The notes under the pieces were generated by a model. It was not told the origin of the DNA, did no database searches, and saw nothing but the letters and a program-made list of their open reading frames with translations. Below, piece by piece: positions 39,118 to 45,858 of a DNA stretch of 64,000 bases (position 1 is its first letter; every line of letters begins with the position of its first letter). The DNA is from Escherichia coli (GTDB lineage Bacteria > Pseudomonadota > Gammaproteobacteria > Enterobacterales > Enterobacteriaceae). Both the position numbers and the translations under genes were made by a program. The stretch lies in the NCBI RefSeq assembly GCF_003790525.1, contig NZ_CP033635.1; one strand, written 5' to 3'.

Positions 39118-40428
39118 ATGTTTGATTCGACTTTAAATCCGTTATGGCAGCGTTACATCCTCGCCGTTCAGGAGGAAGTAAAACCGGCGCTGGGATGTAC
39201 TGAACCGATTTCACTGGCGCTGGCGGCGGCGGTTGCTGCGGCAGAACTGGAAGGTCCGGTTGAACGTGTAGAAGCCTGGGTTTCGCCAAATCTGATGAAG
39301 AACGGTCTGGGCGTCACCGTTCCCGGCACGGGAATGGTGGGGCTGCCGATTGCGGCGGCGCTGGGAGCGTTAGGTGGAAATGCTAACGCCGGGCTGGAAG
39401 TGCTGAAAGATGCAACTGCGCAGGCAATTGCCGATGCCAAAGCACTGCTGGCGGCGGGGAAAGTCTCAGTTAAGATCCAGGAACCTTGCGATGAAATCCT
39501 CTTCTCACGCGCCAAAGTCTGGAACGGTGAGAAGTGGGCGTGTGTCACCATTGTCGGCGGGCATACCAACATTGTGCATATTGAGACGCACAATGGTGTG
39601 GTGTTTACCCAGCAGGCGTGTGTGACAGAGGGCGAGCAAGAGTCGCCGCTGACGGTGCTTTCCAGGACGACGCTGGCTGAGATCCTGAAGTTCGTCAATG
39701 AAGTCCCGTTTGCGGCGATCCGCTTTATTCTCGATTCCGCGAAGTTAAATTGCGCGTTATCGCAGGAAGGCTTGAGCGGTAACTGGGGGCTGCATATTGG
39801 CGCGACGCTGGAAAAACAGTGCGCGCGCGGCTTGCTGGCGAAAGATCTCTCTTCATCCATTGTGATTCGTACCAGCGCGGCATCCGATGCGCGTATGGGC
39901 GGCGCTACGCTTCCGGCAATGAGTAACTCCGGCTCGGGTAACCAGGGGATCACTGCAACAATGCCTGTGGTGGTGGTAGCAGAACACTTCGGGGCCGATG
40001 ATGAACGGCTGGCGCGTGCGCTGATGCTTTCGCATTTGAGCGCGATTTACATCCATAACCAGTTACCGCGTTTGTCTGCGCTTTGTGCCGCAACGACCGC
40101 AGCAATGGGGGCCGCCGCCGGGATGGCATGGCTGGTGGATGGGCGTTATGAAACCATTTCGATGGCGATCAGCAGTATGATCGGCGATGTCAGCGGCATG
40201 ATTTGCGATGGTGCGTCGAACAGCTGCGCGATGAAGGTTTCGACCAGTGCTTCGGCTGCGTGGAAAGCGGTGTTAATGGCGCTGGATGATACCGCAGTGA
40301 CCGGCAATGAAGGGATTGTGGCGCATGATGTTGAGCAGTCGATTGCCAACCTGTGTGCGTTAGCAAGCCATTCGATGCAGCAAACGGATCGGCAGATTAT
40401 CGAGATTATGGCGAGCAAGGCCAGATAA
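39118..40428 (+). CDS. cyuA: L-cysteine desulfidase CyuA (YhaM, UPF0597 family, 436 aa)
   Basis: [38 protein letters not shown]... Confidence 0.92.
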
Positions 40429-40447
40429 TCGCCAGGTTTTGGGGAGC

Positions 40448-40552
40448 GTGCCGGATGCGATGCTGGCGCATCTTGTCCGGCCTACGGGGTGCGCAATTTG
40501 TTGATGTTGTTGTGTTTTGTAGGCCGGATAAGGCGTTTACGCCACATCCGGC
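40448..40552. repeat. REP/BIME element pair downstream of cyuA
   Basis: gccggatgcgatgctggcgcatcttgtccggcctac ... tgtaggccggataaggcgtttacgccacatccggc. Confidence 0.8.
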
Positions 40553-40560
40553 ACTTGTCT

Positions 40561-40728
40561 TTACGCGGTAGCTTCATCCTCGGCTAAACGCGTTTCAGCA
40601 TCCGCGACGATGGCTTCCAGCTCGCTCAACATCTCTTCATAGCCAAAATTTTTGGCGGTGCGAGAAGGTTCTTTCGCCACCACGGGCTTCACTGGCTGAC
40701 GCTTTTTGGCCGATTTTTTACTCATCAT
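40561..40728 (-). CDS. yhaL: Small protein YhaL (about 54-55 aa); below the length cutoff of the supplied ORF track
   Basis: Manual minus-strand translation: MMSKKSAKKRQPVKPVVAKEPSRTAKNFGYEEMLSELEAIVADAETRLAEDEATA; 19 bp downstream of yhaK. Confidence 0.7.
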   Translation of the reverse strand: MMSKKSAKKRQPVKPVVAKEPSRTAKNFGYEEMLSELEAIVADAETRLAEDEATA

Positions 40729-40747: not shown

Positions 40748-41449
40748 CTAGACAGGCAAATCTATCAGCAAAGCGCGCAGTGGGGAATCGGCAACCAGCG
40801 TAATGTTAGCCTCGTCACGAATAAACGCCCCATCACCGCAGGTCAGCGCCGCTTTCTCTTCATGATGCGTAAGCGCATGAAATTTCCCGTGAATCGATTG
40901 CAAATACGCGCGTGGCCCATGCAACTGGAAATTCGCACTTTCGCCTTTGTCGAGCACGATATGGTGCAGCCACACTTGCTGGCGCAATTGCAGGCTTCCC
41001 ATCCCACCTTCTGGCGAGGCGATTAATTGCTGCTTGCTCATATTAAGCGCCAGTTTTTGAATCAGCGGATTCTCTCGTTGTGGGCAGGCATCCAGCCAAA
41101 GTTGCATTCGCGTTAACGATTTGTCTTTGCTGAGATTGTGTTCGCTATAGCTGACACCCGGCTGGGTAGAGAGCAGCAACACCTCACCGGCGCTGGCCTG
41201 AACATGATTGCCTTCGCTGTCGCGATACTCAGCTTCTCCATCCAGAATCACATTTAAAATATCGACTTTGGGATAGGTTCGCGGCTGAAAGGCGGCACCT
41301 GGGGCCAGCACTTCCTGGTTAAGCACGCGCAGGGAGGCATAGCCTAACAATTTCGGGTCGAAGTAGTGTCCAAAGGAAAAAGTATACCGGGCCTGCAACC
41401 ATCCGTAGTCTGCTTGTCCACACTGCCTGGCAGTTCGGGTAGTAATCAT
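40748..41449 (-). CDS. yhaK: Pirin-like bicupin protein YhaK (233 aa)
   Basis: ORF 233 aa; divergent from yhaJ. Confidence 0.9.
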   Translation of the reverse strand: MITTRTARQCGQADYGWLQARYTFSFGHYFDPKLLGYASLRVLNQEVLAPGAAFQPRTYPKVDILNVILDGEAEYRDSEGNHVQASAGEVLLLSTQPGVSYSEHNLSKDKSLTRMQLWLDACPQRENPLIQKLALNMSKQQLIASPEGGMGSLQLRQQVWLHHIVLDKGESANFQLHGPRAYLQSIHGKFHALTHHEEKAALTCGDGAFIRDEANITLVADSPLRALLIDLPV

Positions 41450-41553
41450 AATTCTTGACCTCTCTTTACTTCCTTTTATGGTAAGGGGCTGGACGCTACA
41501 TTGTTAGCCAGATATTCTGCCCGGTATGTTCAAATTTCCTGAATGAGAACGAA

Positions 41554-42450
41554 ATGGCCAAAGAAAGGGCATTAACGCTGGAAGCACTACGGGTTATGGA
41601 TGCGATCGATCGCCGGGGCAGTTTTGCGGCGGCGGCGGATGAGCTGGGACGCGTGCCTTCCGCACTTAGCTACACCATGCAAAAATTGGAAGAAGAGCTG
41701 GATGTGGTGCTGTTTGACCGCTCGGGCCATCGCACCAAATTCACCAATGTCGGGAGGATGTTGCTGGAGCGAGGGCGCGTTTTGCTGGAAGCCGCAGATA
41801 AACTGACTACCGATGCGGAAGCTCTCGCGCGCGGTTGGGAAACGCATCTCACCATTGTGACCGAAGCGCTGGTACCGACACCTGCCTTTTTCCCGTTAAT
41901 CGACAAACTGGCGGCAAAAGCCAATACCCAACTGGCAATTATCACCGAAGTGCTGGCGGGGGCGTGGGAACGGCTGGAGCAGGGGCGGGCGGATATTGTT
42001 ATCGCGCCGGATATGCATTTTCGCTCCTCGTCGGAGATCAACTCGCGCAAGCTCTATACGTTAATGAACGTCTACGTTGCCGCGCCTGATCACCCGATTC
42101 ATCAGGAGCCGGAACCGTTATCTGAAGTGACGCGCGTGAAATATCGTGGAATTGCGGTGGCGGATACCGCTCGTGAGCGCCCGGTATTGACCGTACAGCT
42201 ACTGGACAAACAGCCGCGTTTAACGGTGAGCACGATTGAAGATAAACGTCAGGCATTACTGGCGGGGCTTGGCGTGGCGACGATGCCGTATCCGATGGTC
42301 GAAAAAGATATTGCGGAAGGGCGGTTGCGTGTCGTCAGCCCGGAATCGACCAGCGAGATCGATATTATTATGGCCTGGCGTCGTGACAGTATGGGGGAGG
42401 CGAAATCCTGGTGTCTGCGGGAAATTCCCAAACTTTTTAGCGGAAAATAA
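41554..42450 (+). CDS. yhaJ: LysR-type transcriptional regulator YhaJ (298 aa)
   Basis: N-terminal HTH ...RGSFAAAADELGRVPSALSYTMQKLEEELDVVLFDR. Confidence 0.92.
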   Translation: MAKERALTLEALRVMDAIDRRGSFAAAADELGRVPSALSYTMQKLEEELDVVLFDRSGHRTKFTNVGRMLLERGRVLLEAADKLTTDAEALARGWETHLTIVTEALVPTPAFFPLIDKLAAKANTQLAIITEVLAGAWERLEQGRADIVIAPDMHFRSSSEINSRKLYTLMNVYVAAPDHPIHQEPEPLSEVTRVKYRGIAVADTARERPVLTVQLLDKQPRLTVSTIEDKRQALLAGLGVATMPYPMVEKDIAEGRLRVVSPESTSEIDIIMAWRRDSMGEAKSWCLREIPKLFSGK

Positions 42451-42500: not shown

Positions 42501-42857
42501 TTAATTTGAACCAAACTTCGGATCGTTTCCGTAACGATTGCTGCCAGAATTGCCTTCTAAACAGGCAAATACAAACAGAACTAACCAGCCAATGACCGGT
42601 ACCAGATAGAGAAGCGCCCACGCACCTGAACGGTCAGTATCGTGCAGACGACGAACGCACAGAGCAATGACCGGAATGATTGTTGCTGCCAGGTAAATGA
42701 GAGAAAGGAATGGAAACTCTAAACCTAAAATCAATTGAATGACATTGATAATAGCGCCGACGATGGCGTTAATCAGAGTAAACATCCAGTACTCTTTACG
42801 ACGTGCGCGACCAGAGAAACCAACATAATTTTTTAATACGGCTAAATACCACTGCAT
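42501..42857 (-). CDS. yhaI: DUF805-family inner-membrane protein YhaI (118 aa)
   Basis: MQWYLAVLKNYVGFSGRARRKEYWMF...; paralogue of the adjacent yhaH. Confidence 0.88.
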   Translation of the reverse strand: MQWYLAVLKNYVGFSGRARRKEYWMFTLINAIVGAIINVIQLILGLEFPFLSLIYLAATIIPVIALCVRRLHDTDRSGAWALLYLVPVIGWLVLFVFACLEGNSGSNRYGNDPKFGSN

Positions 42858-43098: not shown

Positions 43099-43464
43099 TT
43101 AAGGTTCCAGTTTTGGATCAGGTCCAAAGCGGTTTTCGCCTGGCGTACCCGCCTGGCAGTTAAAGACGATGATAATAAGCCAGCCGATAAACGGGATTAA
43201 GAACAGCAGTGCCCACCACGCCGAGCGGTCGGTGTCGTGCAGGCGGCGGAACTGAACTGCCCACCATGGTAAAAACACCAGAATACCGTAGATTGTCGTC
43301 AGGATGCCTTCGCCACCGGCACGTTGCCAGCCTAACATTTTATCCAGTAGCCCCAGCACGAACGTAAAGATGATGTTGACCAGAATAAACATCCAGTACT
43401 CTTTGCGCCGCGCACGACCCCGGAAACCGACATAATTTTTTAGTACTTTCAGATACCAGTCCAT
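43099..43464 (-). CDS. yhaH: DUF805-family inner-membrane protein YhaH (121 aa)
   Basis: ORF 43099-43485 trimmed to MDWYLKVLKNYVGFRGRARRKEYWMF. Confidence 0.88.
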   Translation of the reverse strand: MDWYLKVLKNYVGFRGRARRKEYWMFILVNIIFTFVLGLLDKMLGWQRAGGEGILTTIYGILVFLPWWAVQFRRLHDTDRSAWWALLFLIPFIGWLIIIVFNCQAGTPGENRFGPDPKLEP

Positions 43465-43589: not shown

Positions 43590-43700
43590 AAAATTGCCAG
43601 ATGCGCTACGCTTATCTGGCCTGCGCGGTCATTGCAACATATTGAATATAAATGTTTTGTAGGTTTGATAAGGCGTTTACGCCGCATCCGACATGAACAA
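43590..43700. repeat. BIME/RIP-like composite REP element (REP, AT-rich spacer, REP)
   Basis: ...gccagatgcgctacgcttatctggcctgcg...ttgaatataaatgttttgtaggtttgataaggcgtttacgccgcatccgaca. Confidence 0.75.
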
Positions 43701-43746: not shown

Positions 43747-44733
43747 TTAACCGAAGCGAACATCTCGTCCATGCGGTTCATCGAGATCCTGCCACGGACC
43801 AATTGAAATAATCCCCGTAGGGTTGATGGTCTTATGGCTGCGGAAGTAATGATTACGGATGTGATCGAAATTGACTGTTTCGGCAATTCCCGGCATCTGG
43901 TAGATATCGCGCAGGAAGCCATACAGATTCAGGTAATCGCTGATGCGGTGCTTATCACACTTGAAGTGGGTCACATACACTGGATCAAAACGCACCAGCG
44001 TGGTCCACAGGCGAATATCGGCTTCGGTTAGCTGGTTGCCGGTCAGGTAACGGTGCTGACCTAAAATCTGTTCCAGTCGCGCCAGCGATTCAAACACTTT
44101 CGCCACCGCCTCGTCGTAAGCTTGCTGGCTGGTGGCAAAACCGGCTTTATACACGCCGTTGTTAACAGTGTCATAAATCCAGCCGTTAAGTTCGTCAATT
44201 TTCGTTTGCAGGGCTGGTGGGTAGTAATCACCCGCTTTCGCGCCCAGCGCATCAAACGCGGTATTGAACATGCGTATGATTTCTGCTGATTCGTTGCTGA
44301 CGATGGTGTGGTTCTTTTTGTCCCACAGCACGGGAACAGTCACTCGTCCGCTGTAGTGTGGATCGGCGTGGAGATAAAGCTGATACAGAAATTCATGTTG
44401 ATAGAGCGTGTCGCCGGTTGCTCCCGGAAAACTGTCATCAAAGGTCCAGCCGTTTTCCAGCATCAGCGGGTTCACTACGGAAACGGAAATAAACGGTTCC
44501 AGTCCTTTGAGTTTACGCATGATCAGCGTGCGGTGCGCCCACGGGCAGGCGAGTGAAACATAGAGATGATAACGATCTTTCTCTGCGATAAAACCGCCTT
44601 TGCCAGTGGGGCCTGGCGCGCCATCGGCAGTGAGCCAGTTACGAAATGCGGAAGCTGAACGTTGAAATTTACCGCCGGTAGATTTGGTATCGTACCAGGT
44701 GTCATGCCAGACGCCGTCAATCAGTTGACCCAT
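43747..44733 (-). CDS. yqjG: Glutathionyl-hydroquinone reductase YqjG (Xi-class GST, 328 aa)
   Basis: ORF 43747-44916 trimmed to MGQLIDGVWHDTWYDTKSTGGKFQRSASAFRNW. Confidence 0.9.
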   Translation of the reverse strand: MGQLIDGVWHDTWYDTKSTGGKFQRSASAFRNWLTADGAPGPTGKGGFIAEKDRYHLYVSLACPWAHRTLIMRKLKGLEPFISVSVVNPLMLENGWTFDDSFPGATGDTLYQHEFLYQLYLHADPHYSGRVTVPVLWDKKNHTIVSNESAEIIRMFNTAFDALGAKAGDYYPPALQTKIDELNGWIYDTVNNGVYKAGFATSQQAYDEAVAKVFESLARLEQILGQHRYLTGNQLTEADIRLWTTLVRFDPVYVTHFKCDKHRISDYLNLYGFLRDIYQMPGIAETVNFDHIRNHYFRSHKTINPTGIISIGPWQDLDEPHGRDVRFG

Positions 44734-44794
44734 TTTTCTCTCCTCCAATAGCAAAAACGAGGAGCGTTTCTCCTCGTTTGAGACTGATGGCAAA

Positions 44795-44910
44795 CGCAAA
44801 ACTGCCTGATGCGCTATGCTTATCAGGCCTACGAGGTTTCTGCAATGTATTGAATTTGCATGTTTTTGTAGGCCGGATAAGGCGTTCACGCCGCATCCGG
44901 CATGAACAAC
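44795..44910. repeat. Second BIME/RIP-like composite REP element, paralogous to the one at 43590-43700
   Basis: ...gcctgatgcgctatgcttatcaggcctacg...ttgaatttgcatgtttttgtaggccggataaggcgttcacgccgcatccggca. Confidence 0.75.
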
Positions 44911-44980
44911 GCGCACTTTGTCAACAATCTGAAACGAGGAGTGTTCCTCCTCGTTTTTTATTGTTAAGTATAGCGCGTGC

Positions 44981-45373
44981 TTACCACTTTTTATTCAGCA
45001 GGCGGTCGATGCTATACGCGCCTGGACCGGTAATTGCCAGCAGCAGGAATCCGCCAGAAATCGTCAGGTTTTTCATGAACATCAGCGAGTTGACGCCTTC
45101 AGCAAAGTTGCTGTGAAATAAAAATGCCGTCAGCAGCGTAAAGCCCGCAGTAAACAGGGCTGTGGTACGTGTCAGGAAACCGAACAGGATTGCCAGACCA
45201 CCACCAAACTCAAGCAGAATCACCAGCGGCAGCATAAAGCCGGGGACGCCCATTGCTTCCATATATTGTTGGGTACCCGCGTAGCCAGTAATTTTTCCCC
45301 AGCCTGCGGTAATAAACAGAATCGGCATTAAAATACGCGCTACCAGTACACCAACATCTTCTAATTTTTTCAT
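44981..45373 (-). CDS. yqjF: DoxX-family inner-membrane protein YqjF (130 aa)
   Basis: ORF 44981-45463 trimmed to MKKLEDVGVLVARILMPILF. Confidence 0.88.
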   Translation of the reverse strand: MKKLEDVGVLVARILMPILFITAGWGKITGYAGTQQYMEAMGVPGFMLPLVILLEFGGGLAILFGFLTRTTALFTAGFTLLTAFLFHSNFAEGVNSLMFMKNLTISGGFLLLAITGPGAYSIDRLLNKKW

Positions 45374-45558
45374 CATACTCTCCACTGCGCCGCTCAGGCT
45401 GCTGATTGTTTTTTTGTGCAAGGGCGCGCTATTAGCGTCGTTGCTGTCGATGGAGAGAATCATAAACGTGGCGAAGCGTGATTGTTAGCAAGGAAAATTG
45501 TCAAAAATCTTCAAAAAATTTGAGGGATAAGGCCGGAATGGCTCCGGCCAGAGGGAAG

Positions 45559-45858
45559 TTAACCGCGAAGCTGTTGCTGCTTGAGGGTCGTTTTAACCAG
45601 ACGCCAGGCGCTCCATACGCCAAAACCGCGTCTGGCCCAGCGGACCAGCATATTAGGATGGCGAATCGTCCAGATCGCCATCACGCTACTGCCAACCAGC
45701 GCCCAGGAGCGCAGACTTAGCAGCATATTCCAGCGACGATCGTAAGCGCCTGTTGCCTCCAGCCATTCACGACGACTGGCAGAAAGATCCAGCCGTTGTT
45801 GCTGGATCTGGCTAAGCAGTTGCGCCTTACGTCGTTCACGTTCGACTTTACTGCTCAC
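45559..45858 (-). CDS. yqjK: Small membrane protein YqjK (99 aa), GTG start
   Basis: GTG start at 45858 preceded by GAGGAGGAG on the minus strand; MSSKVERERRKAQLLSQIQQQRL...; overlaps the yqjE stop. Confidence 0.78.
   Translation of the reverse strand: MSSKVERERRKAQLLSQIQQQRLDLSASRREWLEATGAYDRRWNMLLSLRSWALVGSSVMAIWTIRHPNMLVRWARRGFGVWSAWRLVKTTLKQQQLRG

Follow-up and report, generated by a model that had tools for sequence, protein, structure and literature searches.

The 185-bp spacer between yqjK and yqjF is very probably a classical LysR-type activated promoter through which YhaJ controls yqjF. We hold this reading with confidence because the exact published YhaJ box is present and the regulator gene is intact; function in this particular strain is assumed, the published evidence having been gathered on the nearly identical sequences of K-12, EHEC and UPEC. 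What a comparison across species appears to add is a fixed geometry. The layout of the promoter is maintained upstream of yqjF in 79 species, the same offsets are maintained upstream of yhaK in 68, and both regularities are new here, as inferences from sequence. We also put forward, as a tentative proposal that may well prove wrong, that YhaJ-activated promoters share a rigid, indel-free operator whose spacing assigns the recognition and activation sites, and that a lineage-specific G-to-A substitution at 45498 would alter the occupancy of the activation site by YhaJ and hence the inducibility of yqjF.

Much of the underlying biology was already in print. Gel shifts demonstrated binding of YhaJ to promoter fragments of yqjF, yhaK, ybiJ, yhhW, ygiD and yceP, single changes of consensus bases in the yqjF box cut DNT induction by about 98%, and hydroquinone induction was lower in a yhaJ deletion for five of these promoters (PMC5031710). 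ChIP-seq placed YhaJ at yqjF and yhaK in EHEC and UPEC (PMC6765310), and its occupancy was similar across strains (PMC7315121), the evidence of these two studies being ChIP-seq and ChIP-PCR. A first-pass annotation of this DNA had stated that YhaJ activates yqjF and yhaK, and the published gel shifts, box mutagenesis, yhaJ deletion and ChIP-seq all bear this out. Its remark that the yqjF promoter is used in explosive-sensing bioreporters is equally well founded, since the promoter and its evolved variant C55 form the sensing element of DNT/TNT bioreporters (PMC8882911, PMC7888469, PMC12781885). The same annotation had named nitroaromatic or quinone-like compounds as the inducers. The quinone-like part stands, but DNT itself does not: the direct inducer is reported to be 2,4,5-trihydroxytoluene, a breakdown product of DNT, or hydroquinone-like compounds (PMC7888469, PMC4625088). 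Nor is the regulon confined to about 5 kb, as had been pictured, since ybiJ, yhhW, ygiD and yceP/bssS are located elsewhere on the chromosome (PMC5031710). Taken as a whole, the annotation is partly supported, in that its core reading was right but already published and its inclusion of yqjG, taken up below, is unsupported.

The promoter lies in the window, by which we mean the whole 64-kb stretch of Escherichia coli DNA that was analyzed. Positions 44900-46100 match the E. coli SMS-3-5 chromosome at 100% identity, and 5422 of 5426 complete E. coli genomes have a counterpart of this segment at 95-100% identity. Gene coordinates were carried over from the RefSeq annotation of SMS-3-5 (NC_010498.1) and are collected in Table 1. 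By this transfer, the region that had been singled out as the yqjF promoter coincides exactly with the 185-bp spacer 5' of yqjF and is intact, and the position given for yhaJ, 3 kb from yqjF, is likewise correct. The YhaJ protein matches the solved YhaJ domains 8h58 and 9irz at E values of 8e-131 and 1e-52, respectively.

Table 1. Coordinates of genes and promoter features in the window (all positions relative to the transcription start are predictions)
Feature	Position	Strand	Description
yhaL	40561-40725	-	annotation transfer
yhaK	40748-41449	-	pirin (Pfam)
yhaK promoter, same layout	41478..41542	-	box TCAGGAAATTTGA(ACA) at 41542..41527, GCAG, GCTAACAAT, TACCAT
yhaJ	41554..42450	+	LysR-type regulator, 298 aa, intact; Pfam HTH_1 and LysR_substrate
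yhaI	42501-42857	-	DUF805 gene
yhaH	43099-43464	-	DUF805 gene
yqjG	43747-44733	-	GST-like (Pfam)
yqjF	44981..45373	-	DoxX family membrane protein, 130 aa (Pfam)
yqjK-yqjF intergenic spacer	45374..45558	-	185 bp; yqjF regulatory region and 5' untranslated region; annotation transfer
ribosome-binding region TGGAGAG	45378..45384	-	ahead of the yqjF ATG (45373); GGAG invariant in the 80-sequence alignment
conserved block CTCTCCATCGACAGCAA	45441..45457	-	spans the predicted start; at least 90% column conservation across 80 sequences
predicted transcription start	45451	-	A of CCATCGA, 7 bases downstream of the predicted -10
predicted -10 hexamer TATGAT	45459..45464	-	consensus scan
predicted -35 hexamer CTAACA	45483..45488	-	consensus scan; within the near-invariant 21-nt block 45481-45501
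second, degenerate box-like site ACAATTTTCCTTG	45489..45501	-	positions 23-35; putative activation site (ABS), centre about -44
G-to-A substitution	45498	-	ACAG to ACAA; lineage-specific, inside the second site
published YhaJ box TCAAATTTTTTGAAGA	45508..45523	-	exact, single match in 64 kb
core dyad TCA-N7-TGA	45511-45523	-	likely recognition site (RBS)
hairpin GGCCGGA-gccat-TCCGGCC	45531..45549	-	follows the yqjK stop codon; upstream limit of the regulatory region
yqjK	45559-45858	-	gene upstream of yqjF

The neighborhood is found across the Enterobacteriaceae and in Winslowiella, and the order yqjK-yqjF-yqjG-(0 to 2 DUF805 genes)-yhaJ/yhaK is kept in most of 80 loci; the Salmonella arizonae locus is without yqjG, yhaJ and yhaK within 5 kb. 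The YqjF protein is 90-100% identical in all 80 loci, an unusual degree of conservation in a small membrane protein. A mechanical list of open reading frames adds 30 in-frame codons to yqjF and starts it from an ATG at 45463 (44981-45463, minus strand). That ATG overlaps the predicted -10 hexamer, the RefSeq start of yqjF is at 45373, and conservation upstream of 45373 is not codon-like. Farther along the window, fimbrial genes (a chaperone, a CS1-type major subunit and a TcfC-like usher) occupy approximately 49570-52600 beside exuR; at the K-12 counterpart of this junction exuT is directly beside exuR, which suggests a strain-specific fimbrial operon.

How firmly can the YhaJ site be placed? 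The 16-mer quoted from Palevsky 2016 as the YhaJ box of the yqjF promoter (PMC11739112) occurs at 45523..45508 on the minus strand with 0 mismatches, and only about 0.08 matches would be expected even with 2 mismatches allowed. The expectation that the 185-bp region should carry the YhaJ site is therefore borne out, the exact published box having been found once and unchanged. The generic LysR pattern T-N11-A, which had been suggested as a check, has no discriminating power: the 185 bp contain 12 occurrences where chance predicts 11.4, and 41450-41553 contains 8 against a chance level of 7.7. It was dropped as a test for a YhaJ site because of this chance frequency in both spacers. The bare dyad TCA-N7-TGA is not enriched over the whole window either (13 seen, 16.5 expected), and its occurrence at 41446-41458, overlapping the yhaK start codon, is probably due to chance. 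The signal sits in the specific published boxes, not in the generic LysR motif. Conservation focuses on the same few bases. The dyad arms TCA and TGA are present in 79/79 species around a variable center, a single TCA-N7-TGA lies at -150 to -165 from the ATG in 79/79 loci with enough upstream DNA, and 10 E. coli variants that were sampled all have the same 13-nt dyad core. Conservation is lost 5' of the box in the 80-sequence alignment.

A 2025 study left the recognition and activation sites of the yqjF promoter unassigned (PMC11739112), and the species comparison was undertaken for this reason. One genome per species was scanned, giving 80 loci that encode YqjF at 90-100% identity; layout counts refer to the 79 enterobacterial species with enough upstream DNA, with position 1 taken as the first T of the box. 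Between the box (1-13) and the -10 there are no indels upstream of yqjF in the 79 species. Within this fixed frame, ACAG occupies 23-26 in 75 species, CTAACA occupies 36-41 in 78, TAnnnT occupies 60-65 in all 79 with the inner bases variable, and CATCGA is found at position 72 in 76. The pattern TAnnnT with variable inner bases is the classic signature of a -10 element. The combination CTAACA-18-TATGAT (45488..45459) is the only sigma-70-like match in the region, and the near-invariant 21-nt block at 45481-45501 contains a box-like half-site at 23-26.

Our search of the literature on YhaJ and the yqjF promoter found no measured yqjF transcription start, and all positions relative to +1 are therefore predictions. 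With the start predicted at 45451 (about 3250484 in K-12 NC_000913.3), the dyad center falls at about -66, so that the layout would put the box near -66 and the likely activation site near -44. A box at -66 with a degenerate site at -44 abutting a weak -35 is, if these predicted positions are right, the standard layout of a LysR-type activated promoter.

Further evidence for a common layout comes from the other YhaJ targets. The yhaK-yhaJ spacer carries the 16-mer TCAGGAAATTTGAACA at 41542..41527, which differs from the yqjF 16-mer at six positions, and the published work likewise reports six changes for converting the yqjF box into the yhaK one (Palevsky 2016, PMC5031710). The yhaK promoter keeps the yqjF offsets in 68/68 species, with GCAG at 23-26 and TA[CA]CAT at 60-65, and GCTAACAAT occupies 35-43 in 67 of them. 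In K-12, the ybiJ, yhhW and ygiD promoters have TCA at 23-25 and a -10-like hexamer at 60-66, so that the half-site at 23-26 recurs in yhaK, ybiJ, yhhW and ygiD. The CATCGA core of the conserved start block (45446-45451) is spaced alike from the YhaJ box in K-12 ybiJ and yhhW (71-72); the yhaK promoter has no such block at its predicted start. The DNA upstream of bssS/yceP contains no [TG]CA-N7-TGA within 287 bp and could not be fitted to the common layout. A composite pattern matches only the yqjF and yhaK promoters in the window, a circular result given that the pattern was built from these two; independent support for the layout comes from the remaining species and regulon promoters. The start block also contains a dyad, TCG-N7-CGA, which was considered as a YhaJ site and rejected, its 3' arm not being conserved across genera.

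These elements can be assembled into a plausible sequence of events. Published work shows that YhaJ, encoded 3 kb away, binds the dyad TCAAATTTTTTGA and is required when hydroquinone or DNT breakdown products induce the promoter. The dyad would be the high-affinity recognition site, centered about 66 bases before a start near 45451. The weaker box-like site at about -44 would abut a poor -35, CTAACA, and an 18-bp spacer would separate this hexamer from a good -10, TATGAT. If YhaJ acts as other LysR-type regulators do, its tetramer may bridge the two sites, and inducer binding may then shift or bend the DNA such that RNA polymerase can use the weak -35. About 78 nt of leader would precede the yqjF ATG in the transcript.

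Other readings of the same DNA place the promoter differently or dispense with it. Perhaps the core promoter consists of TTGACA (45504-45499) as a perfect -35 with a -10 about 18 bp downstream, in which case YhaJ would bind right beside the -35, centered near -50, and the transcript would begin near 45468. The hexamer TTGACA matches the consensus perfectly and could be an alternative -35, and in K-12 the sequence CATCAT, a 4/6 match to TATAAT, is found at an 18-bp spacing from it. The gains of the evolved promoter have in addition been credited to changes in the '-35 element' (PMC4625088), and C55 turns TTGACA into TTGTCA; yet moving a perfect -35 off consensus would be expected to reduce output, and for C55 an increase is reported. 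The would-be -10 reads CACGCT in the window, several other E. coli variants that were sampled also depart from CATCAT, and no part of the region is less conserved across 80 species than the stretch in which it lies. TTGACA itself varies, to TCTACA in Klebsiella and TTAACA in Enterobacter, whereas the TAnnnT at 60-65 is never lost among the 79 species. TTGACA-18-CATCAT was rejected as a promoter on these conservation grounds, and we regard the arrangement as improbable. Even harder to credit, with hardly any likelihood in our estimation, is a yqjF that has no promoter of its own and depends on read-through from yqjC-D-E-K, the box being incidental. The yqjC-D-E-K genes and yqjF do share a strand, and the hairpin after yqjK lacks a clean T-run and is not called as a terminator, but the idea is already contradicted by published plasmid fusions, in which short promoter fragments, about 260 bp long and stopping just short of the yqjF ribosome-binding site, suffice for inducible reporter expression (PMC8961053, PMC7888469). 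Box mutations, moreover, abolish induction (PMC5031710), and the promoter elements are conserved in 79 species.

If the YhaJ-dependent promoter with its putative activation site near -44 is the correct reading, does the version in the window behave like that of K-12? The spacer has 8 substitutions relative to K-12 (177/185 bases identical), none of them in the box or the predicted -10; the box, predicted -35, predicted -10 and ribosome-binding site are the same in both. The substitution at 45498 falls on a base that is G in 75/79 species representatives, the half-site reading ACAA in 1/79, and 93 of 5422 E. coli genomes have the exact 60-mer of the window. The laboratory-evolved C55 promoter carries this G-to-A change as well. 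The C55 sequence was taken from the unmodified control row 'WT' of Supplementary Table S1 of PMC12781885, on the understanding that the chassis of that paper is the C55 plasmid, and it differs from the K-12 promoter at positions 13, 17, 23, 26, 46, 57, 67 and 80. The changes at 23 and 26 convert ACAG to TCAA, and the second site becomes TCAATTTTC / GTCAATTTTC, the same as the natural yhhW site; the window has one of these two changes, the one at 45498. The C55 changes and the remark about the '-35 element' would both fit the idea that a better second site raises activation. C55 also carries a change of TGA to TGG in the recognition site, yet it works well, and therefore a simple dyad model is incomplete. 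That the lineage promoter differs from K-12 in basal level or inducibility, through the 45498 change and the other 7 substitutions, is a possibility to which we give rather less than even chances. The prevalence of G at this position, the fixation of the same change in C55 and the shift of the half-site towards the TCAA of ybiJ and yhhW all point that way, but C55 has several mutations besides the 45498 change, Salmonella arizonae naturally has GCAA at the half-site, and box, -35 and -10 are unchanged from K-12. Here a near-invariant position varies in nature in the same way as under laboratory selection, and the variant is cheap to test.

The flanks of the predicted promoter revealed little by way of RNA structure. 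RNAalifold, applied to the leader of about 78 nt from 22 genera, predicted no pairs for a consensus structure; small GC hairpins seen by eye in the leader were not alignable and are not claimed. Rfam families gave no match within 45374-45558, and elsewhere in the window only repeat-element-derived families matched. Weak matches to naRNA4, a REP-derived family, at 40419-40594 (cyuA-yhaL spacer) and 43662-43698 (yqjG-yhaH spacer) are most likely ordinary REP elements. The hairpin that follows yqjK is a possible terminator of that gene and is conserved only in E. coli and E. albertii. It does fold, with a z-score of -1.39 that is not significant, and a terminator scan gives no call; on these two grounds the terminator reading was set aside.

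What of yqjG, which had been counted as part of the YhaJ regulon? Its inclusion is not supported. The DNA upstream of yqjG (44734-44980) contains no TCA-N7-TGA, and the gene is not mentioned in PMC5031710 or in the main text of PMC6765310. Hairpins and an insertion also separate it from yqjF. The yqjF-yqjG spacer, 69 bp in K-12 with a strong hairpin plus T-run between the two genes, is 247 bp in the window as a result of a 178-bp repeat-element insertion (insert at approximately 44780-44930), and two terminator-like hairpin copies, AAACGAGGAG...CTCCTCGTTT, flank the repeat element, such that the K-12 hairpin is duplicated. The inserted element consists of two REP palindromes around an AT-rich center, has at least 39 related copies per genome, and looks like a BIME-1/RIB-type unit; this form of insertion at yqjF-yqjG is found in 88 of 5426 complete E. 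coli genomes. YqjG is a glutathionyl-hydroquinone reductase. A functional link, suggested by conserved synteny and by the enzyme function, is plausible but unproven.

The yqjF promoter owes its importance to two roles: it does the sensing in bioreporters built to find landmines, and it is a model target of a conserved regulator with effects on virulence as well. Both roles are already established, and an intact promoter in one more E. coli genome adds nothing to them. A comparative map of the probable positions of YhaJ and RNA polymerase, on the other hand, could guide rational promoter engineering and footprinting.

The K-12 yqjF promoter, studied directly (PMC5031710) and in its C55 derivatives, is the same locus as that in the window, with the 8 substitutions and the repeat-element insertion between yqjF and yqjG as the differences. 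The yhaK-yhaJ divergent region, which holds the site for YhaJ autoregulation and yhaK activation (PMC7315121), is similar to the yqjF promoter in its regulator, in the dyad at 1-13, in nCAG at 23-26, in GCTAACAAT at 35-43 and in TAnnnT at 60-65. The two differ in setting: the yhaK site adjoins the regulator gene, from which yhaK is transcribed divergently, whereas yqjF is 3 kb away, separated from yhaJ by three genes (yhaI, yhaH and yqjG) and not divergent from an adjacent regulator gene. A divergent target beside the regulator gene is the textbook LysR arrangement, typical but not obligatory.

LysR-type promoters of the BenM/CatM and CbnR type have a recognition site near -65 and two overlapping activation sites near -45 and -35. 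With the predicted start, the yqjF promoter would resemble them: its T-N11-A dyad would lie about 65 bases before the start, the putative second site, degenerate in sequence, would follow two helical turns farther downstream, and the conserved block would overlap a weak -35. Unlike the ATAC/GTAT half-sites of the BenM/CatM and CbnR promoters, those of yqjF are TCA/TGA.
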